Of a DNA stretch of 45,377 bases, positions 99 to 42,887 are shown piece after piece. The notes beneath the pieces were generated by a model, which searched no databases, was not told the origin of the DNA, and saw nothing but the letters and a program-made list of their open reading frames with translations. Origin of the DNA: Escherichia virus TH13; sequence record MT446391.1; one strand, written 5' to 3'. The translations under genes and the position numbers were made by a program. How positions within the stretch are numbered: the stretch's first letter is position 1; each line of letters opens with the position of its first letter.

Positions 99-671
99 AT
101 GCACAAAAGGGCTTATATCATGGCAGAAATTAAAGTTAAGGGCCGACGCGCCAAACTGGACGGACGAGTAGCAGTAACCCCGCGCCGTAAACCAGGCGAG
201 CAAACCGAGCATACCAATCTCGGACCTGAAATCGAGTACGGCAAGCGCCGTAAAGGCGGCAAATGTGGACGCCCTACTGACTACAGATCCGTTTACTGCG
301 ACCAGCTTCGCCGCTATTTTGCCGACGCCGACGCCTGGCAGGTCAACTACTCCGATAAAGGCGCTGCGCAAGTAATCCCCCGCAACAAAATGCCAACCTT
401 CGGTCGTTTTGCCGCAGAAATTGGCGTAGGCGTTGCCTGCCTGTACCGCTGGGCGCGCGCGCATGAGGAGTTCGCCGAGGCGATGGCGGACGCTATGGAG
501 CTACAGAAAACTTTCCTGATGGAAGCCGGTGGCGTGACCATCGCGGCAGGCTTCGCTACGTTCCTGCTTAAGGCAAACCACGGCGTCCGCGACGATGTGC
601 CGCTGGATGACGACGAAGATGATAACGGCGACGTCGTAGTGGAACCTACCGGCAAAGGCCAGGGTGAATAA
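99..671 (+). CDS. terminase small subunit (putative); start may be the internal ATG at 120
   Basis: 190-aa ORF immediately upstream of and overlapping (TAATG) the large terminase gene; basic N-terminus and acidic C-terminal tail typical of TerS; position-based call. Confidence 0.55.
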   Translation: MHKRAYIMAEIKVKGRRAKLDGRVAVTPRRKPGEQTEHTNLGPEIEYGKRRKGGKCGRPTDYRSVYCDQLRRYFADADAWQVNYSDKGAAQVIPRNKMPTFGRFAAEIGVGVACLYRWARAHEEFAEAMADAMELQKTFLMEAGGVTIAAGFATFLLKANHGVRDDVPLDDDEDDNGDVVVEPTGKGQGE

Positions 672-2056
672 TGCGTAACTATGCGGCAGAACACCGCGCA
701 CTGGAACGCGCGATCGCAAAGCGCAACCGACCGCCGCGCCCGACACGCGTTGCGCAGGCCGTACGCCTTTACCAGCCCGATTGCCTTCCCCACCAGGTGG
801 AACTACTGCGCGACACAAAGACCAAAATACTCGGCCTGTGTTCCGGCTTCGGTGGCGGAAAGTCATGGGTCGCGGCGCGTAAGGTCATCCAGCTTCTGAC
901 ACTGAACCCGGGTCATGACGGCATCGTGACCGAGCCGACTATCCCACTCCTGGTTAAAATCATGTATCCGGAACTGGAGAAGGCTTTCGACGAGGCTGGA
1001 TTCCGGTGGAAGTTCAATAAGCAGGACAAGATTTATAGCGTGCTGGTGAAAGGCAAATGGACCCGCGTTATTTGCGAGTCAATGGAGAACTACACACGTC
1101 TTATCGGTGTTAACGCCGCGTGGATTGTTGCCGACGAGTTCGACACCACGAAGCAAGACGTTGCAATGGCGGCGTATCACAAATTGCTCGGTCGTCTGCG
1201 TGCTGGCTTGGTACGCCAGTTCGTCATCGTGTCCACCCCGGAAGGCTACCGGGCGATGTACCAGATTTTCGAAGTGGAGAAGGACAGCCAGAAACGTTTG
1301 ATCCGGGCGAAGACCACGGACAACCACCATTTACCGGCGGACTTTATAGACACGCTGCGCAGTCAGTACCCAGCTAACCTGATCGACGCGTACCTGAACG
1401 GCCTGTTTGTTAACCTTACGTCGGGCGCGGTGTACAAGATGTTCAACCGCGAGGAGAACGCCAGCACCGAAGAAGTGCAGCCGGACGACACACTGATTAT
1501 CGGTATGGACTTTAACGTCACGAAAATGGCGGCGGTTGTGTATGTCAGACGGCAGCGCGTCACCGAAAACAAGGAGTTCCGCGACGAGATTCACGCGGTG
1601 GATGAATTTGTGGACCTGTTTGACACCCCGGCTATGATTGAGGCGATCGAGGAGCGCTACCCGGAACATTGTGCCGCCGGTAGGGTCGTCGTTTACCCGG
1701 ATAGCAGCGGCAAATCCCGCAAGACGGTCAACGCGTCGTCGTCCGATATCGCACAACTGGAAGACGCTGGCTTCGAGGTGGAGTATGACAGCGTTAACCC
1801 GCCTGTGAAAGACCGACTGATCGCGATGAATACGATGATGTGCAACTCGAAGGGCGTGCGCCAGTATTTTGTCAACCTGGATAAATGCCCTACACTAGCG
1901 AAATGTCTGGAACAGCAGGTGTACGACCTGAAGAAAGGCGAACCGGATAAAACGGCCGGGGTGGACCACATGAATGATGCAGCGGGCTATCCAATTGCGC
2001 ACCTGTTCCCAGTGATTCGTCCGATCGCCGTTGTTCCAACTGTAGACTTCTACTAA
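671..2056 (+). CDS. terminase large subunit
   Basis: 461 aa; Walker A-like GFGGGKS near N-terminus; located between TerS and portal. Confidence 0.8.
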   Translation: MRNYAAEHRALERAIAKRNRPPRPTRVAQAVRLYQPDCLPHQVELLRDTKTKILGLCSGFGGGKSWVAARKVIQLLTLNPGHDGIVTEPTIPLLVKIMYPELEKAFDEAGFRWKFNKQDKIYSVLVKGKWTRVICESMENYTRLIGVNAAWIVADEFDTTKQDVAMAAYHKLLGRLRAGLVRQFVIVSTPEGYRAMYQIFEVEKDSQKRLIRAKTTDNHHLPADFIDTLRSQYPANLIDAYLNGLFVNLTSGAVYKMFNREENASTEEVQPDDTLIIGMDFNVTKMAAVVYVRRQRVTENKEFRDEIHAVDEFVDLFDTPAMIEAIEERYPEHCAAGRVVVYPDSSGKSRKTVNASSSDIAQLEDAGFEVEYDSVNPPVKDRLIAMNTMMCNSKGVRQYFVNLDKCPTLAKCLEQQVYDLKKGEPDKTAGVDHMNDAAGYPIAHLFPVIRPIAVVPTVDFY

Positions 2057-11194: not shown

Positions 11195-11508
11195 TTGAGG
11201 CGGCGCGACGCTTTTATGGTCCGCCGCCACCCTCCGAAGATTTAGCCGCAAGTTTATGGGGTGCGGCCCCCGAAGATGTTTGTCCGCCTGTTGCGCTATG
11301 GCCCGACAACGCGAAGATAGTCGCAGTCTTCACAGATTGCGCCACGCAATGGCGCACCGGATTTGGTGGCGCATACGGCATCGACTACGGCGTGCTGGAG
11401 TGGTTATTTAAGATGCACGGTATCGAAAACGAGCAGCGCGCGTTTAAAGATATCAAGCTAATGGAACGAATCGCGCTTGATGAGATGGCGCAGCAGAACC
11501 CCGCATAA
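10832..11508 (+). CDS. tail assembly chaperone frameshift fusion (gpGT-like) via -1 shift at 11185..11191
   Basis: -1 frame after the slippery site reads LIEAARRFYGPPPPSEDLAASLWGAAPEDVCPPVALWPDNAKIVAVFTDCATQWRTGFGGAYGIDYGVLEWLFKMHGIENEQRAFKDIKLMERIALDEMAQQNPA, stop at 11506..11508; no ATG-initiated ORF covers this coding-looking stretch. Confidence 0.5.
11185..11191 (+). other. -1 programmed ribosomal frameshift slippery heptamer A_AAA_AAC
   Basis: heptamer in X_XXY_YYZ register at the last two codons of the G-like ORF; the -1 frame is open for 105 further codons. Confidence 0.55.
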
Positions 11509-11819
11509 TGCAGCGGGACGTCCCGTTTTGTCCCGCCTCTGTAAAACTGCATACCTACTCACACCCACTGCATAAACCAAAAACGGGACAAACGGGACGT
11601 CCCGATCTGTCCCGCCATGTAAATGTGCATACCTATTCAGATTTCGTGCATAAAGTAAGCGGGACAAAAAGCGGGACAAACAAGGAGCGGGACAAAGCGG
11701 GACAGCACCCCGTCCCCGCCAGTGCTGCCGCGGGTTGCGGCCGATCGGGACAAGCGGGACAAACCCCAGTCTTTCAGACTAGACGGGGGTCAATGGCCCC
11801 CCTCGTCTGAGACTGAATA
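11509..11819. repeat. GGGACA-iteron element copy 1 (shared ~175-bp core about 11647..11819 plus extra upstream GGGAC(G) repeats)
   Basis: multiple GCGGGACA(A) direct repeats, two CGGGACGTCCCG palindromes, terminal hairpin cagactagacggggg..cccccctcgtctgagactg; near-identical core recurs at 40388..40562. Confidence 0.7.
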
Positions 11820-11883
11820 AGGTTTGTTTTAAATTCGCTGATACAATGTCAATCGGCAACTGCATAAAAAAGGGGACTGCATA

Positions 11884-14526
11884 ATGGCAGATCAAGCGGC
11901 AGGCATCACGCTGAAGGCTGATGTTGCACAAATCAGAACGGCAAATACTGTGCTGGACTCCTTCGCACAGAAATCCGAGAACACAGAAAACAAGGTTAAG
12001 AAATTAAACGACACCCTCGGCAAATCCAAAAAGGTCACTGGCGACGCCGCTGGTGGAATGGAGAAGCTGGCGAACGAATCGCAGCGCGCCGCCGACGGCA
12101 TGACGAAACAGGAGAGACTTGCCAACAGGTTAGGCATGTCGACCAAAAACCTGGGCTTTGCCTCGCGTAACGCCGCATTCCAGTTACAGGATATCGCAGT
12201 TACGCTTGAGATGGGTATGCCTGTTCACCGCGTCATGCTTCAGCAGTTACCGCAGCTAACTGGGGCGTTCGGCGGTCTTGGTAACACGCTGCGTTTTGTT
12301 GCGGGCTTCCTCGGTCCGGTAGGGATCGGCATTGCAGCACTAACGGCAACGTTAGGCGTAGGAGTGGCGGTTACGTCCCGTGCCGAAAACCAGGTCGCAG
12401 CGCTTAACAAGACGCTGGCGCTGTCCGGTAACATTTCCGGCCTCACTGCAAACCAGATCCTTGTGCTATCCGAGAACGCCGAGCGCATGGGCGGGTCATT
12501 CCGCAAGACGCGTGACACAATCCAGGCGTTGGCGGCGGCGGGTGTGAAAGCGGGTGCGGACTTCGGCACGCTGGCGAAAGTGGTGAATGACTTTGCGAAG
12601 GTGTCCAGCCAGCCGGTCGAGGATGTGGTCGCGGCGGTGGCGAAGCTGTCTACAGACCCGGTAGGCGGCTTGCGAGCATTGGCTGATAAGTATCACGTCG
12701 TAAACGAAGCGCAGATCCAGCAGGTGCAGTCGCTTGTGGATATGGGTCGCGAAACCGAAGCGGTGGCGCTGGCTAACAAAACAGCCGCAGCGTCGTTTAC
12801 CACTATGACCAACGATATTAAGTCCAACATGGGTACGCTTGAGCGTTCGATGAACGTCGTCACATCGGCAGCTAAATCAATGTGGGATGCCATCCTGGAT
12901 GTTGGACGCGCGCAGTCCTCTAATGAGTCTGAGATGAAAGCGCGTGAATCATTGCAGAGGCTGACCACGGCTTACTATGCCGAGATGAAAGCGGTAAACG
13001 CTGCCGGTGGGGTGATGACCGAAGCGCAGAAAGCGCGTATTAACATGCTTTACAGCGAACTGGTAGCCCAGGAGAAGGTGGTGGCATCGCTCACCCTGCG
13101 CAACCGTGCCGAGCGAGACAACGCAAATGCCGCGGACGAAGCAGCAAAGGCGAACGAAGAGGCAAACCGCACCGCCCGCGACCGCGCTGCGTTTGAGAAG
13201 GAGTACGCAACCAACGCGAAGCGGCGAGCCGACGAGATCGCCCGCCTCAATTTGCTGAATAAGCGCGGTGTTATTAACGAGAAAGAGCTTGCCGAGGCGG
13301 TGAAGCAGGTAAACGAGCGTTACAAAGACCCCGCCCCGAAGAAGGCCGCCGCTGTTCGAGTCGATGCCGGGCTGAAAATGCTGGAAGTCGCGCGAAGCGA
13401 ATTAGCCCAGCTTCGTGAGTCTGGAAAGCAGATCGAAGCCAACTATTCGACGCAGACCCGCACGCAACGCGCGCAAGCGGCCCTTAACAAGCTGATTGCC
13501 GACAACGAGCAGTTAATCGCTGCGAGCAAAGAAAGGGCGCTGACGGCAGCAGAGAAGCAGCAAATGGCGGGATTCGAGGCGGTTAAATCTGTACGCGAGC
13601 AGATCGTCGAAGAAGCCAAATTGCTGGACGCGAAAGAGAAGCAGGTCAAGGCGCACGCGCAGATCGACGCCTTCGTTAAGAACCAGAACGCCGAGCTAAA
13701 AGCCACCGCGGCGGGCTATGCGCTTTCCACTCGCGAAGCGGCTAACCTGCGCGAAGAATTGCAGCTAATTGACCGCCTTAAGCGGGTGGGCGCTAGTGAT
13801 ACCGATATTGATCTGGCGGTGTCTAAGCTGCGCGAAGTGCAGGAAGCACAGACCGGTGCTAACGCCTCGCTATGGGATGGATTAAGCCGCGGGCTTAAGG
13901 ATAGCGTTGATGAAATGGGTAACGGCTATACGCAGATGGCGTCACTAACAAAATTCACGTTCGGCGCTATGCAGGACACGATGAACGAGTTTTTCGAGAC
14001 TGGCAAGCTGAACGCAAAGGATATGGTTAAGTCCATCCTGAGCGAATTAATCAAGCTGGCTACATCGCAGGCGTTCAAGTCCATCGTTAGCGCTTTCGGT
14101 GGCGACGGCGGCAAAAACGGATTGTTCGGTGCTATCTTCTCCGGCCTGACTAAGAATGCGGACGGCGGAGCGTACGCAGGGGGCAATCTCGCGGCCTATT
14201 CGGGGCAAGTGGTAAGCCAGCCTACCTTTTTCAGTTACGGCGTCCAGGCGTTCGCTAAGGGTGCTGGATTGATGGGGGAGGCTGGACCCGAGGCCATCAT
14301 GCCGCTGAAGCGCGGGCCAGACGGGAAACTTGGCGTTGCCGCTGCCGGTGTAGGCGGGGGGATGATTGTAACGACCAACGTTAACATGGGGACCGGTAAG
14401 ACGGATACCAGTGTTAGCGGACCAGACCCGCGCACCGCGCAGGCGTTCGGAAAGCAAATCACCGAGTCGGTCAAGGCCGAGATCGTGAAGGCGACGAAAC
14501 CGGGTGGTGTACTTTACAAACGATGA
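11884..14526 (+). CDS. tail tape measure protein
   Basis: 880 aa, largely alpha-helical/coiled-coil with Gly-rich C-terminal part; follows G/GT chaperone. Confidence 0.85.
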   Translation: MADQAAGITLKADVAQIRTANTVLDSFAQKSENTENKVKKLNDTLGKSKKVTGDAAGGMEKLANESQRAADGMTKQERLANRLGMSTKNLGFASRNAAFQLQDIAVTLEMGMPVHRVMLQQLPQLTGAFGGLGNTLRFVAGFLGPVGIGIAALTATLGVGVAVTSRAENQVAALNKTLALSGNISGLTANQILVLSENAERMGGSFRKTRDTIQALAAAGVKAGADFGTLAKVVNDFAKVSSQPVEDVVAAVAKLSTDPVGGLRALADKYHVVNEAQIQQVQSLVDMGRETEAVALANKTAAASFTTMTNDIKSNMGTLERSMNVVTSAAKSMWDAILDVGRAQSSNESEMKARESLQRLTTAYYAEMKAVNAAGGVMTEAQKARINMLYSELVAQEKVVASLTLRNRAERDNANAADEAAKANEEANRTARDRAAFEKEYATNAKRRADEIARLNLLNKRGVINEKELAEAVKQVNERYKDPAPKKAAAVRVDAGLKMLEVARSELAQLRESGKQIEANYSTQTRTQRAQAALNKLIADNEQLIAASKERALTAAEKQQMAGFEAVKSVREQIVEEAKLLDAKEKQVKAHAQIDAFVKNQNAELKATAAGYALSTREAANLREELQLIDRLKRVGASDTDIDLAVSKLREVQEAQTGANASLWDGLSRGLKDSVDEMGNGYTQMASLTKFTFGAMQDTMNEFFETGKLNAKDMVKSILSELIKLATSQAFKSIVSAFGGDGGKNGLFGAIFSGLTKNADGGAYAGGNLAAYSGQVVSQPTFFSYGVQAFAKGAGLMGEAGPEAIMPLKRGPDGKLGVAAAGVGGGMIVTTNVNMGTGKTDTSVSGPDPRTAQAFGKQITESVKAEIVKATKPGGVLYKR

Positions 14527-29937: not shown

Positions 29938-29968
29938 TTCTAAAATCCTCGATAGTGCTAACCGGCAC

Positions 29969-29997
29969 ACTATACCGCTACGCGACCAATTCAGCAA
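29969..29997 (-). promoter_or_regulatory. sigma70-like promoter (TTGCTG-N17-TATAGT) at left edge of tandem duplication; second copy at about 30556..30584
   Basis: -35 overlaps an AGCAACCAAT motif; -10 TATAGT; coordinates approximate. Confidence 0.4.
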
Positions 29998-30256
29998 CCA
30001 ATAAATCACAGTCGGCTATGTTGTCGATAACGCGAACGTCCGCACCGCGGCGGGCCATTCGTTCATGTTCACGTACCTGGTGCGGCTTCGGTTTCCCACC
30101 TGGGCGCTTCACTTCGACGAACACTATTTTGCCGTTGATGATAATAATCAGGTCGGGCGCACCTGCGCGCCCCTCCCATGCCAGTTTTCGGCAGAATCCC
30201 CCAACGGCTTTAACCAGCTTCATCAGGTGACTTTGTATCTTGCCTTCTGGTGTCAT
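29978..30256 (-). CDS. VRR-NUC domain nuclease, copy 1
   Basis: 92 aa; ...FVEVKRPGGKPKPHQ... with conserved D/E-x-K catalytic core typical of VRR-NUC. Confidence 0.8.
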   Translation of the reverse strand: MTPEGKIQSHLMKLVKAVGGFCRKLAWEGRAGAPDLIIIINGKIVFVEVKRPGGKPKPHQVREHERMARRGADVRVIDNIADCDLLVAELVA

Positions 30257-30444: not shown

Positions 30445-30564
30445 AATCTTACTTCCTGTACCTGTACATAATGTCGCCTTCGGCGGCAAGTGGGAAGCCT
30501 TTCGCCCAAATAGGCAGGTCGCACATCTAAAATCCTCGATAGTGCTAACCGGCACACTATACCG

Positions 30565-30843
30565 CTACGCGACCAATTCAGCAACCAATAAATCACAGTC
30601 GGCTATGTTGTCGATAACGCGAACGTCCGCACCGCGGCGGGCCATTCGTTCATGTTCACGTACCTGGTGCGGCTTCGGTTTCCCACCTGGGCGCTTCACT
30701 TCGACGAACACTATTTTGCCGTTGATGATAATAATCAGGTCGGGCGCACCTGCGCGCCCCTCCCATGCCAGTTTTCGGCAGAATCCCCCAACGGCTTTAA
30801 CCAGCTTCATCAGGTGACTTTGTATCTTGCCTTCTGGTGTCAT
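30565..30843 (-). CDS. VRR-NUC domain nuclease, copy 2
   Basis: identical 92-aa translation to copy 1. Confidence 0.8.
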   Translation of the reverse strand: MTPEGKIQSHLMKLVKAVGGFCRKLAWEGRAGAPDLIIIINGKIVFVEVKRPGGKPKPHQVREHERMARRGADVRVIDNIADCDLLVAELVA

Positions 30844-37633: not shown

Positions 37634-37963
37634 ATGAATGTAAACGACGCAATCGAAATGTTAACGAAGACTGTTTGCAGTGAGACAAGCCGGTCGTGGG
37701 CATACACCGATGCCGTGGGGGCTGTGTTATTTGAAATCGAACGACTGCGGCTTACCGAAAAAGAATTGCGCGCCAGGCTGGAACTACTCAACGGTACAGC
37801 AGCAAGCAAGCTGCAAAAACACAATGAAGAAATGGAAGAATACAAAAAGCAGGTTATCCGTTTGCGCGCCGAGGGTAAATCATGGGCGATGATTGCCGAG
37901 TTGACCGGGATTAATCAGAGCACAGTGCGCTCCTGGGTACGCAATAATAAAACTTCTAAGTAA
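37634..37963 (+). CDS. putative DNA-binding regulator (C-terminal helix-turn-helix)
   Basis: 109 aa; coiled-coil middle, C-terminal GKSWAMIAELTGINQSTVRSWVRNN HTH-like segment. Confidence 0.5.
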   Translation: MNVNDAIEMLTKTVCSETSRSWAYTDAVGAVLFEIERLRLTEKELRARLELLNGTAASKLQKHNEEMEEYKKQVIRLRAEGKSWAMIAELTGINQSTVRSWVRNNKTSK

Positions 37964-37973
37964 GGCCACGGCA

Positions 37974-40238
37974 ATGAGCTTGATTAAATTCGCTGTAACA
38001 AAACCCGCTAAAAAAGGCGAAAAAGCCAGGGCGGAAAACTTCCAGATGACGACCGATGAGTTTTTCGAATTTATCAAAGATGCGAAAGAAATCTCCTCGG
38101 TGCATATCAACAAGACGGAAGATAAAGCCGAGTATGCGCGCCGCAAGCGTAAGGCCGATGGCATCGTGGCGTATACCAGTGACGGATTGCGTCGTAAGAC
38201 CAGTGCGGTGGACCGCTCGATCCTGTTCTTTGATATTGACCGCACCGACACCCGCACCCTGCGCCGCTGCCGTAAGGCGTTCATCGACGCGGGACTGGAA
38301 CATGTATTTCACACCACAACCGGCGACCGCCACCCGCTGAAAGGTGGCACGCGTTGCGCTCGTTTCCTGGTGCTCACCGACAAGCCTGTACCGGCGGAAG
38401 ACCTAGGCCGCGTACAGTATGCACTGTTACACCAACTGGGCCTGTCAGATGTGGACTTCGATGATTGTACGAAAGACACAAACCGCCTTATGTACCTACC
38501 ACACCAGCAGTCCGTTGTTAAGTGTCACTACGGCAAACGTGCCCGCGTCCGTCGTCTGCTTCGCCTGGCGGATAAGCTGGGAGTGGAAAAAGAGGAAGTA
38601 CGACGCGAACTGACCCAGGGCGATGACGGCGTGGCTGACGGTATTCTGGATTGGTGCTTCCAGGCGGGATTCGAACCGCTGTCGTCCGGTCGTGGTTATG
38701 AAGTGCCATGCCCGAACGAACACCTGCACAGTGGTGAAGGGTCCACCGCTATCATGGTTAAGGATGGCGAGATCCGTTTCAAGTGTATGCATACCGGCAA
38801 CGAGTGTTGCTCGGAGCTGAACAGACACCAGCACCTGGCGCTACGTCTTATCGGGATCCCGGACCACCTGAACGTCGAACCGCACAACATGTCACGTAAG
38901 CAAATCGCCGCCATCCTTCCAGGACTGGACGACGAGGAAGTGGAATCGTGCTATGCGCATATCGTTGATGCGGTCGGAGACGGCGACGAGTACGGCGGAT
39001 GTACAGATGCAGACCTGGACAACGAGCCGGTTGCGCTGTTCAGTAAGCACGACCCGATCATCGAGGGGCTGATTAACTTCAAATCGACCTGGTATCTTGC
39101 TGGCGAGTCGAACATCGGTAAATCGTTCTACGTGCTGGGCCAGATGGCGTCAGTATCTGCCGGTATTCCGTTCGGCGGCGCGAAGGTCGTCCAGTGCCAC
39201 AACTTCTATTTCGACGCGGAAGGTGGTGAAGCCTCCAACCAGCGTAAGGAAGCATTGCAGATCAAATATGAGCACGACCTGGACAAGCTGCACATTATCG
39301 ATCTGCAGTCACGCGGCTGGGATATCACCAGCAAATCCGGCTTGCGTGAAGTTATCAGCTTTATCAACCGCACCGCTAACGGCGAGCCGGTTGGCCTGGT
39401 GGCGTTCGACTCACTCAACCAGACTGTCGCGTTGCGGTCAGCCGATGCTAAACCGTTCGACGAGAACAACGCCAGCGATATGGGCGAAGTGGTCAAAGCG
39501 CTGAAGGCTATTGCGGAAAACACAGGCGGCAGTGCGGGAGTCATCCACCACCCGGCGAAAGGTGCAAACGGCAGCAGATCTCCCCGCGGGTCCGGCGCGC
39601 TGCATGGTGCTGTCGATTCCGCGTTCTTCCTGGAGCAACCGGACGACAATCAGCCGGGCCAATTGAACCTGTACCATGAGAAGGCACGTAACGGCATCAA
39701 GCAAGCGCCGCGCGGCTTCGTCCTGCTTAAGTGCAAGGTTAAGGTGGATCTCCGCAAGTCAGAGGCGTTCGAATCGCACCAGTCCACCAGCACCGGGCCT
39801 GACTTCGGTGATGTGGTTGCAGGATGGGACGTCAAGCCGATCGCATCAACGCCACGCGACGAGACTCTTTACCTCGTACCTGTCGCCCTGGCACCGTTCG
39901 CTATTGAGCAGGCGAAGGCCGCGGGTAAGGCAGCAGTTAAGGAAGAGAACCCCGCAGGACCGCGCAACGAAAAAGAGAAAGTGCTTTATGCGGCGCTGGA
40001 AAAACTGATGGAAGATAACCCGGACCATACCGGATTCAGTAAATCGGCAATCGTCCGCCAGGCTGGACTTGCGAAAGGTGGCACATCGACGAAGGCAATA
40101 GACGATATGGTCGAGCGCGGCGTGCTCGGTTTCTATACAGATCCGCACACCGGGGCCATCTATGGGTCATCGAATATCGTCATCAAAACGAATATACCCA
40201 TCACGCTTTCGGCGACCGATGATGATTTAAAAGATTAA
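37974..40238 (+). CDS. DNA primase/helicase-like replication protein
   Basis: 754 aa; Zn-binding-like CPNEHLHSGEGS...CMHTGNECC; C-terminal RecA/DnaB-like ATPase segment (Walker A-like AGESNIGKS, ...VAFDSLNQ...). Confidence 0.6.
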   Translation: MSLIKFAVTKPAKKGEKARAENFQMTTDEFFEFIKDAKEISSVHINKTEDKAEYARRKRKADGIVAYTSDGLRRKTSAVDRSILFFDIDRTDTRTLRRCRKAFIDAGLEHVFHTTTGDRHPLKGGTRCARFLVLTDKPVPAEDLGRVQYALLHQLGLSDVDFDDCTKDTNRLMYLPHQQSVVKCHYGKRARVRRLLRLADKLGVEKEEVRRELTQGDDGVADGILDWCFQAGFEPLSSGRGYEVPCPNEHLHSGEGSTAIMVKDGEIRFKCMHTGNECCSELNRHQHLALRLIGIPDHLNVEPHNMSRKQIAAILPGLDDEEVESCYAHIVDAVGDGDEYGGCTDADLDNEPVALFSKHDPIIEGLINFKSTWYLAGESNIGKSFYVLGQMASVSAGIPFGGAKVVQCHNFYFDAEGGEASNQRKEALQIKYEHDLDKLHIIDLQSRGWDITSKSGLREVISFINRTANGEPVGLVAFDSLNQTVALRSADAKPFDENNASDMGEVVKALKAIAENTGGSAGVIHHPAKGANGSRSPRGSGALHGAVDSAFFLEQPDDNQPGQLNLYHEKARNGIKQAPRGFVLLKCKVKVDLRKSEAFESHQSTSTGPDFGDVVAGWDVKPIASTPRDETLYLVPVALAPFAIEQAKAAGKAAVKEENPAGPRNEKEKVLYAALEKLMEDNPDHTGFSKSAIVRQAGLAKGGTSTKAIDDMVERGVLGFYTDPHTGAIYGSSNIVIKTNIPITLSATDDDLKD

Positions 40239-40313
40239 ATTTTGCGCGCATTGGTTGCCGATATGGGAATTCCCATATCGCTAGAAGATTAAATTTTGCG
40301 CGCATTGGTTGCC
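40231..40313. repeat. 29-bp perfect direct repeats flanking a 22-bp perfect palindrome
   Basis: aagattaaattttgcgcgcattggttgcc x2 around cgatatgggaattcccatatcg; third partial copy (tattggttgcc) about 40339; first repeat contains the primase stop codon. Confidence 0.7.
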
Positions 40314-40387
40314 ATTTTGAGTGTTTTTATCTGGTCGTATTGGTTGCCGTGTAGTGTAAATATAGTGAATAGTTATGCAGTTTTATT

Positions 40388-40562
40388 GCATAAAGTAAGC
40401 GGGACAAAAAGCGGGACAAACAAGGGGCGGGACAAAGCGGGACAGCACCCCTGTCCCACCCCGGATGACGCGGCCTGGAGAGGAGCGGGACAGGCGGGAC
40501 AACCCCCAGTCTTTCAGACTAGACGGGGGGTCAATGGCCCCCCTCGTCTGAGACTGAATAAA
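40388..40562. repeat. GGGACA-iteron element copy 2
   Basis: tgcataaagtaagcgggacaaaaagcgggacaaacaagg-gcgggacaaagcgggacagcaccc ... agtctttcagactagacgggggg-tcaatgg-cccccctcgtctgagactgaataa; about 75 bp 5-prime and 60 bp 3-prime near-identical to copy 1, middle about 40 bp diverged. Confidence 0.7.
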
Positions 40563-40716
40563 ATCCGGGGATTGCAAAATACACGGCAGCATGATGCGAA
40601 GTGCGGTCGAGGATGAACTAGGCAACCAATGCGAGATGCATTATGCTGAGTGAAAAATGCAGTTTGCAGTCACAGCAGATAGCGATCAACTTTTTCATGC
40701 GCATGTTTGATATTGG

Positions 40717-40745
40717 TTGCATTCAACCCGGCACCTGGCTATATT
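40717..40745 (+). promoter_or_regulatory. sigma70-like promoter (TTGCAT-N17-TATATT) for 40774 operon
   Basis: -35 is part of an ATTGGTTGCAT motif; about 30 nt upstream of the start codon. Confidence 0.5.
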
Positions 40746-40773
40746 GGTTGCGCACCAACATGAGGACTGAACA

Positions 40774-41064
40774 ATGAGAGCGTTAATCTGGAATTACACA
40801 ATGGCAGTGGCAAAACCGGTCGAAGCGAGATATACCAACGGCAGAGCACCGTGGGAGCGCCTGGTAGCTCCGACCTGGTTTGCGGTCATGGATGCGACCG
40901 CGGGCATGGAAGACCCCGAGCCGTTGCGCGCGGCTATCAGGGCTTACGCGCTTGCATTTGCCCGTGAACGCCTGGCCTATCGCTTCGGTATTGGCGATAA
41001 GGCAGTGACAAACGTCGCCCGGATTAAAGCCCAGCGCGAACTATTCTCCAAGCTTGCGAAATAA
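40774..41064 (+). CDS. hypothetical protein
   Basis: 96 aa; RBS gagga. Confidence 0.5.
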   Translation: MRALIWNYTMAVAKPVEARYTNGRAPWERLVAPTWFAVMDATAGMEDPEPLRAAIRAYALAFARERLAYRFGIGDKAVTNVARIKAQRELFSKLAK

Positions 41065-42244: not shown

Positions 42245-42544
42245 ATGGGGCAGATTATGATTCATGATGTGATTTATTGGTTTGGTTTGATCTGCGGGCT
42301 ATGCCTGCTTACCGCGGTGCTGTTGGGCATCCTGATGTTCGTCGTATGGCCTGCAGTGGAAGCCGCCAGTATTACCCGCATGACGTTCGAGGTATACAAG
42401 CGCCGCGGGATCACGGAGCACCCGACCAGGTTACGCATGTGGTGGCTGTGGTATCGGGATATGATTGGGGGCCGGATGTTCGAGGCCGTCCGATCGGAAG
42501 GATGGGAATGGAAAGGCGTCGGCAAGTGGTCCGTTTTCGATTAA
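42245..42544 (+). CDS. small membrane protein
   Basis: 99 aa; N-terminal TM segment (VIYWFGLICGLCLLTAVLLGILMFVVWPAV). Confidence 0.5.
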   Translation: MGQIMIHDVIYWFGLICGLCLLTAVLLGILMFVVWPAVEAASITRMTFEVYKRRGITEHPTRLRMWWLWYRDMIGGRMFEAVRSEGWEWKGVGKWSVFD

Positions 42545-42562
42545 TTATGCAAGCGTGATATA

Positions 42563-42596
42563 GTCCCAGTGAGCTAAAACTTACTGGGACTTTTTT
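42563..42596 (+). terminator. hairpin plus T-run directly abutting holin start codon
   Basis: gtcccagt-(12 nt)-actgggac followed by T6, then ATG of the holin-like gene with no room for an SD. Confidence 0.5.
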
Positions 42597-42887
42597 ATGG
42601 ATAAGCTAAACGAGTGGTTATTTGCCCTCGCATGTCTGGCGGGTGGCTTCGTAGGCGCACGCATTCATGGTGAGGCTACGAAGGGGCCGCTAAACTTCGT
42701 TTTGTATGTTGTAGTTGGCTTCCTGTGTGCCATATTTGGCGCACCGGCTATTGCCGAGTGGGCTGGTTTGTCGGGGGAGCGCACTGTCGCCGGTTTGGGC
42801 TTCGTAACCGCAATCTTCTGGATGCCAATCGCCGACCGGATCAGGGAGACTATTGCGTCGTTCCGACTTCCGGGGGGTGCAAAATGA
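42597..42887 (+). CDS. holin-like membrane protein
   Basis: 96 aa, three predicted hydrophobic helices, immediately upstream of second small membrane protein and endolysin. Confidence 0.55.
   Translation: MDKLNEWLFALACLAGGFVGARIHGEATKGPLNFVLYVVVGFLCAIFGAPAIAEWAGLSGERTVAGLGFVTAIFWMPIADRIRETIASFRLPGGAK

Follow-up and report, generated by a model that had tools for sequence, protein, structure and literature searches.

What is the function of a repeat element of about 175 bp that occurs twice in the genome of Escherichia virus TH13 (sequence record MT446391.1), once between the tail chaperone and tape measure genes and once behind the gene of a primase-helicase? The element was noticed in a reading of the sequence alone (the original prediction), in which an origin, a packaging or recombination site, and a structured RNA were listed as possible functions. 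The analysis covered the whole stretch of 45,377 nucleotides (the window; one strand, 5' to 3'), which was placed by DNA searches in the genus Dhillonvirus, a group of SO-1/HK578-like virulent siphophages of E. coli. The two-copy element is real and strongly conserved. Judged from comparison of sequences, it is most likely a replication origin that belongs to a known general type and is unusual in being duplicated; among the listed functions, the comparative evidence favoured an origin for copy 2.

Copy 1 is located in region A, the 375-bp non-coding gap (11509..11883, plus strand) that extends from the stop codon of the tail chaperone to the ATG of the tape measure gene. Copy 2 is located, as had been proposed from the sequence, in a non-coding gap of 535 bp (region B; 40239..40773, plus strand) that follows the primase-helicase gene, and starts 150 bp past the stop codon of that gene. 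Both names were taken from the GenBank record of Sodalis phage SO-1 (GQ502199), in which the two orthologous loci were already labelled "region A" and "region B" as repeat_region features and their mutual similarity was marked (the record reads 'direct, inverted and palindromic repeat sequences; sequence similarity with region B; possible ...'); the record offers no more than this annotation. The original prediction did not take in the full extent of regions A and B, the further motif families within them, or the SO-1 labels. Region A corresponds to the SO-1 feature of that name, and region B is somewhat longer than its 480-bp SO-1 counterpart.

The two copies, which begin 28.7 kb apart as repeat clusters, were aligned without large gaps and almost gap-free, with identities of approximately 92% in the 5' iteron block, 55% in the centre, and 90% in the 3' block and hairpin. 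Each contains four plus two direct CGGGAC(A) sites around a centre of about 40 bp, one inverted GTCCC directly after the fourth direct site, and a terminal imperfect hairpin of 49-50 nt. Copy 1 (11647..11819, plus strand) runs from TGCATAAAG through the hairpin to AATAA and is composed of four direct GCGGGACA iterons (11659..11705; sites at 11660, 11672, 11688, and 11698; start-to-start spacing of 12, 16, and 10), an A-type locus-specific centre (11706..11744; inverted GTCCCC at 11712-11717), two direct CGGGACA iterons (11745..11762; sites at 11746 and 11755), and a three-segment imperfect hairpin (11767..11815), all on the plus strand. The corresponding plus-strand parts of copy 2 (40388..40562, plus strand) are four direct GCGGGACA iterons (40399..40445; sites at 40400, 40412, 40428, and 40438), a B-type locus-specific centre (40446..40484; inverted CTGTCCC at 40451-40457), two further direct GCGGGACA iterons (40485..40502; sites at 40486 and 40495), and a three-segment imperfect hairpin (40507..40556).

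The clustering is far above chance. The word GCGGGACA was found 15 times in the window against 1.9 expected, a count that was not reached in any of 100 shuffles, and 13 of the 15 sites fell within the two regions, as did 19 of the 29 sites of the shorter CGGGAC. Both copies therefore hold a cluster of at least three direct repeats of one short motif, and analogous clusters were found in relatives. When folded with DNA parameters, the hairpin of copy 1 gave -13.4 kcal/mol (z = -3.6) and that of copy 2 gave -15.0 kcal/mol (z = -4.1), and none of 200 shuffles was as stable. The 42-50 bp directly upstream of the repeats were 69-74% A+T, as compared with 46% for the genome and 33% for the spacer between the repeat sets. 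The description of a two-copy repeat element of about 175 bp with a terminal imperfect hairpin was thus borne out by the alignment, the GCGGGACA counts, and the folds.

Far from being absent from relatives, the element was matched at both loci in all 158 of the matching Dhillonvirus phage records, with query coverage of at least 80% in 150 records for region A and 142 for region B and with identity mostly between 80 and 95%. At region B the closest relative was phage TH11 (100% identical). Within-genus alignments were built from 14 region A and 16 region B orthologues (30 copies). The CGGGACA blocks were near-invariant across the 30 copies and the spacers between them variable; in the copy 1 iteron blocks, single substitutions were seen in 3 of the 14 orthologues. 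The hairpin arms were constant in all but three copies, the exceptions being a T-to-G stem change in SO-1 region B and a C-to-T change at the loop-proximal end of the 3' arm in two copies. The 7-nt loop took at least seven forms. The centre was approximately 87% conserved among orthologues at either locus and approximately 55% identical between loci, so that it is locus-specific and not free-drifting. The earlier comparison with a protein-binding array, made on the grounds of conserved flanks and a diverged centre, is therefore only half right: the centres do diverge between loci, but each locus keeps a conserved centre of its own. The A-type centre of copy 1 resembled the centre of Enterobacter phage phiEap-2 and the region B centre of the divergent Dhillonvirus LM40P1 more than the usual B-type centre did, with a small margin over shuffles.

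The same rare variants of the 3' block and of the loop were present at both loci, and the identity of the 3' blocks of regions A and B was 0.897 within the same genome versus 0.873 between genomes (permutation p = 0.054). These comparisons suggest occasional exchange between the two copies, and they fit a single trans-acting factor that reads both sites.

Relatives beyond the genus were gathered by protein searches with the primase-helicase and by DNA similarity. A word-index protein search with the C-terminal domain returned one fragment only, and an exhaustive search returned 10 proteins. In the relatives, the stop codon of the primase-helicase is followed by an A+T-rich stretch with a TGAATAGTTATGCA palindrome, a repeat array with one copy inverted, a spacer, two or three more repeats, and a long imperfect hairpin. 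At least five iteron classes were distinguished in this layout. The repeat is CGGGACA in Dhillonvirus; CGGACAA in phiEap-2 (7 of 13 genome copies within 152 bp) and, at the same position, in Pantoea phage AH01; AGGGATA in the metagenomic lineages L042 and L043 and in Hafnia phage TS33; GGGGAGA in Salmonella phage St162 (6 of its 7 copies are packed into the 153 bp behind the primase-helicase stop); and CGCCCCG in Edwardsiella phage eiAU, where the enrichment was weaker (6 of 18). Copy 2 accordingly lies next to the candidate initiator gene, in the position occupied by the array in St162, phiEap-2, AH01, TS33, L042, L043, and eiAU; copy 1 does not lie next to that gene.

The hairpin is a conserved, stable stem-loop beside the replication gene, and its integrity has been kept. 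Nine versions were folded with RNA parameters, and each formed one long three-segment hairpin of -24 to -33 kcal/mol; with DNA parameters, eight of the nine gave z-scores of -2.8 to -4.7 relative to shuffles, and St162 was weaker (z = -1.5). The G/C core is alike in all lineages. The outer stems change between lineages yet pair (CAGTCT/AGACTG, AGTCTTAG/CTAAGACT, TATCCTC/GAGGATA, and CTTCG/CGAAG), which is the pattern expected if the folded form matters. Individual folds were used because an alignment of the nine hairpins with MAFFT and RNAalifold was not structural and recovered only the G/C core. A search of IMG/VR with the hairpin core pattern returned only eiAU and two chance matches in unrelated high-GC contigs.

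The distribution of the two loci indicates which copy is older. St162 and phiEap-2 have a single element copy and a tight chaperone/tape-measure junction. In phage eiAU, as in Dhillonvirus, the tape measure gene is preceded by a long non-coding stretch, which has segments in common with the eiAU region B and in which the top of a hairpin (GAGACGGGGG...CCCCTCGTC) matches the Dhillonvirus hairpin; eiAU, too, has a second repeat cluster. On the evidence of these single-copy and two-locus genomes, the region B copy is ancestral and the region A copy is an old duplicate that was fixed in the Dhillonvirus/Eiauvirus line. The idea that copy 1 was inserted into a normally tight junction is in keeping with the single copy and tight junction of St162 and phiEap-2, but the insertion is old, being present in all matching Dhillonvirus and in Eiauvirus. 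The eiAU region A (record L035; 42121-43000 plus 1-221) is approximately 1.1 kb long and contains a minus-strand open reading frame (ORF) at 42365-42718 and a canonical terminator directly after gp16, contents which imply that the chaperone/tape-measure junction tolerates insertions.

The primase-helicase (37974-40238, plus strand; 754 aa; AAA_25/RepA-like helicase core at residues 357-531) is the candidate initiator and the sole homologous DNA-binding candidate common to all lineages. The small helix-turn-helix (HTH) gene upstream of it (37634-37963, plus strand) encodes an HTH_23 protein in the window versus an HTH_3 protein in St162 and in lineages L039 and L041, the families differing by lineage. 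The least conserved part of the primase-helicase is its C-terminal region of about 90 residues, in which a winged-helix domain was predicted (39969..40190, plus strand; approximately residues 666-739). The model of this region has a helix-helix-helix-strand-strand order with a core predicted local distance difference test (pLDDT) score of about 70-77, obtained from only seven sequences. Its top Foldseek matches were nearly all winged-helix DNA-binding domains (MarR family, LexA, ORC, and linker histone), with weak E-values of 0.015 or above. The predicted recognition-helix region is identical in TS33 and L042, both of which have AGGGATA, and similar in phiEap-2 and AH01, both of which have CGGACAA; it differs in St162, eiAU, and Dhillonvirus. 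The putative recognition helix thus appears to track the repeat, in agreement with the model below, in a comparison that is confounded by relatedness. The only PDB sequence match of the helicase core was RSF1010 RepA, which was not significant (E = 0.46). For the N-terminal (primase) domain, Pfam and PDB sequence searches were empty and the AlphaFold2 model was unusable (pLDDT of 46). The C-terminus of the protein (40224-40238) carries a conserved acidic tail, DDDLKD, with D-L-E-D/N in relatives; acidic C-terminal tails of other replisome proteins, which it recalls, mediate contacts with polymerase or single-stranded DNA-binding protein.

The reading proposed for regions B and A is that both are replication-origin modules, each made of iterons plus a stem-loop and served by the phage's own primase-helicase; we give this an even chance. 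The C-terminal winged helix of the protein would bind the CGGGACA repeats (four plus two around a spacer of about 40 bp) just 3' of its own gene, and oligomerisation on the array would open the adjoining DNA. Candidates for the site of opening are the 69-74% A+T stretch, which holds the TGAATAGTTATGCA palindrome, and, on the opposite flank of the array, the long palindrome. Once extruded, the three-segment hairpin, in which the bulges and the G/C core are conserved, might then act as a helicase-loading or priming signal, and region A would be either a further origin or a partner site in cis comparable to P4 crr. We infer binding, unwinding, priming, and any replication activity from the anatomy and conservation of the element, the lineage-specific repeats, the hairpin potential that has been kept, and the predicted winged helix.

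Several observations weigh against this proposal. GC skew follows gene orientation, with no feature at either locus; the spacer between the iteron sets is approximately 67% G+C, unlike the A+T-rich spacer of Staphylococcus aureus pathogenicity island (SaPI) type; the iterons, at intervals of 12, 16, and 10 bp, show no helical phasing; and a second origin within a late tail operon would be odd. Both copies are just upstream of conserved promoter/operator sequence, which could also be explained by a regulatory role. The winged-helix assignment depends on weak Foldseek E-values and a model built on seven sequences, and phylogeny confounds the correspondence of the recognition helix with the repeat. 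Lineage L039 (the P0008 lineage) has no obvious iteron array after the primase-helicase gene.

A more far-reaching version, which is possible rather than probable, is that Dhillonvirus, Eiauvirus, and several Guernseyvirinae-like siphophages share an undescribed class of origin, with the region A copy as an obligatory partner or a late origin. Such a class may combine the halves of an IncQ-type system in fused form, with one cis module (iterons and stem-loop) and one protein (primase, RepA-like helicase, and winged helix); if region A were a late origin, it may couple replication to tail-gene expression.

Other features were noted in the two regions. The upstream part of region A (11509-11646) is made of two units of about 79 bp, each with a GGGAC palindrome cluster (two sites forward, followed by two in reverse) and two TGCATA half-sites at a distance of 21 bp. 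The clusters, to which no strand was assigned, are at 11514..11537 (CGGGAC/GTCCCG-TTTT-GTCCCGCC; fold z = -3.2) and 11584..11616 (two forward and two reverse sites; fold z = -3.4), the window being without the first forward GGGAC site of unit 1 that is present in most relatives, as is PTXU06. The two CGGGACGTCCCG palindromes that had been noted near copy 1 were located at 11514-11525 and 11593-11604, inside these units. An imperfect 14-15-bp palindrome, TGMATA-NN-TATKCA (motif 3), occurs on the minus strand at 11548..11562, with two mismatches to GTGAATAGTTATGCA, and at 11626..11640, within the 69% A+T stretch just upstream of the iterons. Its region B copy (GTGAATAGTTATGCA; 40365..40379, plus strand) lies in the 74% A+T stretch upstream of the iterons and is also conserved in St162, phiEap-2, AH01, and L043. 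An extended -10 promoter-like site, TGATACAAT (11839..11847, plus strand), was read from the sequence about 37 nt before the tape measure ATG; its CGCTGATACAAT core is constant in the 14 orthologues, save for the first base in one, and it was not called by a simple promoter scan because it has no -35 element.

The 8-mer GCATAATG flanks region A (11503-11510 and 11879-11886), spanning the chaperone stop TAA and the tape measure start ATG; the flanks occur in only some orthologues and may be the trace of an original overlapping stop/start junction. In the TH11 record (L040, MT446389, UNVERIFIED), a tandem duplication of about 520 bp at 280-1180 comprises the end of the chaperone gene and the entire region A, and represents either an assembly artefact or instability of a repeat-rich region.

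Region B contains six of the 16 window sites of the 9-mer ATTGGTTGC (5911, 5924, 22011, 25366, 27019, 27036, 29994, 30581, 37435, 40250, 40304, 40339, 40622, 40712, 40743, and 41262). These sites are apparently mostly intergenic and mostly in the orientation of local transcription, and two of the region B copies bracket a promoter-like TTGCAT-17-TATATT site before the gene at 40774. Counterparts in relatives are GTTGGCTG(C) in St162, phiEap-2, and L042 and GCAACCAA in eiAU. The 9-mer is probably an operator/promoter motif of a phage regulator, separate from the GGGACA system. At 40228-40313, 32-nt direct repeats (40228-40259 and 40282-40313) surround a perfect 22-bp palindrome, CGATATGGGAATTCCCATATCG (40259-40280); the first repeat and the palindrome are missing in about half of the relatives. 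At 40373-40391 there is a short inverted repeat, ATGCA-N7-TGCAT, and among orthologues its loop occurs in both orientations (GTTTTAT or ATAAAAC), an inversion of the kind that arises when a hairpin or cruciform forms in vivo.

The surrounding gene order is as follows. The terminase genes (99-2056, plus strand) are followed by head and tail genes, also on the plus strand, which include the tail chaperone G/GT frameshift ORF (plus strand, stop at 11506-11508) and the tape measure gene (11884-14526, ATG at 11884). A replication block on the minus strand encodes a SNF2 helicase, a family A polymerase, and a DUF2800 nuclease. The gene at 44029-45171 matches calcineurin-like phosphoesterase and DNA-repair exonuclease families; its SO-1 orthologue gp58, of the same length and position, is labelled 'putative transcriptional regulator', a label that is probably wrong. 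A 300-nt direct repeat (29939-30238 and 30526-30825; 100% identical, spacing of 587 bp) carries in each copy one ATTGGTTGC site and a 92-aa minus-strand ORF (29978-30256 and 30565-30843), and could be a recent duplication or an assembly artefact.

The first of the rival explanations is a transcription-unit boundary and regulatory module. The repeats would be an operator array, and the hairpin would stabilise mRNA 3' ends or, as a processing site of the RNase III type, part the upstream operon from the next one; the regulator would be the small HTH protein (37634-37963) or an autoregulating primase-helicase acting on the promoters that follow. Both copies are co-directional and placed at the end of a gene block, just upstream of TGATACAAT or of the ATTGGTTGC-flanked TTGCAT-17-TATATT, and the eiAU region A also has a cluster of a genome-wide operator-like motif. 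Like T7 RNase III sites, the hairpin is long, irregular, and interrupted by internal loops, and the iteron-related inverted repeats in its arms (AGAC versus GGAC) recall plasmid Rep operators. However, the hairpin has no U-tract behind it, and the scan for intrinsic terminators was negative on the plus strand at both copies. Within the genus the stem sequence is almost constant, more so than an RNA stabiliser of purely structural function would need. The small HTH protein is non-homologous across lineages that share the architecture, and the position after the primase-helicase gene is kept even where the downstream genes differ. A regulatory role is considered unlikely. Still less probable is a pac- or cosB-like packaging recognition site, with the small terminase subunit binding the repeats and cutting starting nearby. 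The short repeated sites with an intervening spacer resemble lambda cosB and SPP1 pac, which have repeated short sites with a bendable spacer, and a sequence like the integration host factor (IHF) consensus, AATCAA-N4-TTA, is present in the spacer of L042 and L043. The phiEap-2 paper reports a linear genome from restriction mapping, and the phiEap-2 record ends about 330 bp after the hairpin, but exactly at a stop codon, so that this end looks like a chosen cut rather than a mapped one; the eiAU record begins inside its region A. The terminase genes are about 5 kb and about 9.5 kb from the copies, however, and two copies 29 kb apart would yield two packaging series. The PhageTerm call for Dhillonvirus Opt-212 was plain headful with no pac position reported, and the repeat tracks the C-terminus of the product of the neighbouring gene, the primase-helicase.

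It is very unlikely that the element encodes a structured non-coding RNA of about 170 nt in which the repeats are single-stranded protein-binding motifs and the hairpin is the 3' end, for example a sponge for CsrA or another GGA-binding protein. Each copy does have six GGA-containing motifs, mostly predicted to be unpaired, followed by a strong terminal hairpin, and copy 1 gave a sub-threshold Rfam match to PrrB/RsmZ (17.7 bits, E = 0.063). The gathering score of that family, 44 bits, is far above this value, however, and copy 2 was without such a match. No convincing upstream promoter and no U-tract were found, and the whole-element fold of copy 1 was no better than shuffles (z = -0.9). The repeats of the other lineages are without a CsrA-type context, the GGA context of CGGACAA being different and CGCCCCG having no GGA, and the palindromic GGGAC arrangements in region A point to recognition of double-stranded DNA. 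We regard as scarcely credible the remaining explanation, in which a selfish miniature mobile element without function for the phage was copied into the chaperone/tape-measure junction. The 8-bp direct repeat GCATAATG on both sides of region A (11503 and 11879) and the tight junction in out-groups are what such an element would leave, but this flank is confined to some of the orthologues, and TGCATAA also recurs internally as a motif. Terminal inverted repeats are absent, the element occupies two fixed positions with only two copies per genome, and no copies were found in 5,426 E. coli genomes or 72,556 plasmids. Strong purifying selection on repeats and stems was evident in every Dhillonvirus record examined.

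Four further candidates were rejected. The hairpin is not an intrinsic terminator: it is followed by AATAAGG or AATAAAA with no U-tract, and the terminator scan called none on the plus strand at either copy. Protein coding was set aside since many orthologues lack the 100-aa ORF at 11508-11810 or have it shifted, and since the reading frame differs between the two copies. Searches for known RNAs gave no tRNA or tmRNA and no Rfam family at gathering thresholds, with sub-threshold noise at permissive E-values. Conserved flanks around a differing centre had raised the idea of a diversity-generating retroelement with a template and a variable repeat, but the changes from one copy to the other are not specific to adenine, and the orthologues at each locus share a conserved centre.

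Searches of the literature collection that was used returned no paper that analyses regions A and B or a Dhillonvirus replication origin. The existence of the loci was already flagged in the SO-1 record; no earlier description appears to exist of the architecture shared across lineages or of the link with the C-terminus of the primase-helicase. Dhillonviruses are common coliphages in therapy-oriented collections and in defence-system screens. If the origin reading is true, it would provide a concrete origin and a candidate initiator domain for the whole phage group, a natural series of matched repeat/winged-helix pairs for studying or re-engineering origin specificity, and a second case, after P4, of a phage replicon with two distant initiator-binding arrays. 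Annotators should be aware that the small "hypothetical proteins" annotated across regions A and B are probably spurious.

The element was compared with the closest known replication systems. The origins of SaPIs and other phage-inducible chromosomal islands (PICIs), which use Pri-Rep proteins, are directly 3' of the initiator gene and have two sets of short repeats around a spacer, like copy 2; their island-specific iterons are matched to a variable region at the C-terminus of the initiator. SaPI origins have an A+T-rich spacer and no terminal hairpin, whereas the spacer in the window is approximately 67% G+C, and no homology is present. The alpha protein of P4, like the window protein, joins a primase, a helicase, and a C-terminal winged helix (predicted here) in one polypeptide and is used with short origin repeats. 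P4 also needs a second cis site, crr, which is several kb away and has the same repeats, a parallel to regions A and B. The primase of alpha is of the bacterial (Toprim) type and its helicase belongs to superfamily 3 (SF3), whereas the window helicase core is AAA_25/RepA-like and no sequence similarity was detected; the P4 ori is without the long terminal hairpin of the window element. Alpha binds its origin repeats via the C-terminal winged helix (summarised in PMC4234260). In the IncQ plasmid RSF1010, RepC-bound iterons lie beside stem-loops that are used by the RepB' primase after RepA unwinding (PMC4234260). The oriV of this plasmid, with ssiA and ssiB, places an iteron array beside conserved stem-loops as in the window element, but its proteins are separate, its stem-loop pair is on opposite strands, and its repeats are about 20 bp; the window has apparently one fused protein, one hairpin per element, and repeats of 7-8 bp. 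The origin of pRN1 from Sulfolobus is a stem-loop just downstream of its primase-helicase-winged-helix gene, a layout shared by Bordetella phage BIP-1, and the pRN1 stem-loop is required for replication and still works when relocated (PMC4234260). The long stem-loop directly 3' of the replication gene in pRN1 and BIP-1 is matched by window region B, but pRN1 has no iterons and an SF3 helicase, whereas the window element combines iterons with a stem-loop.

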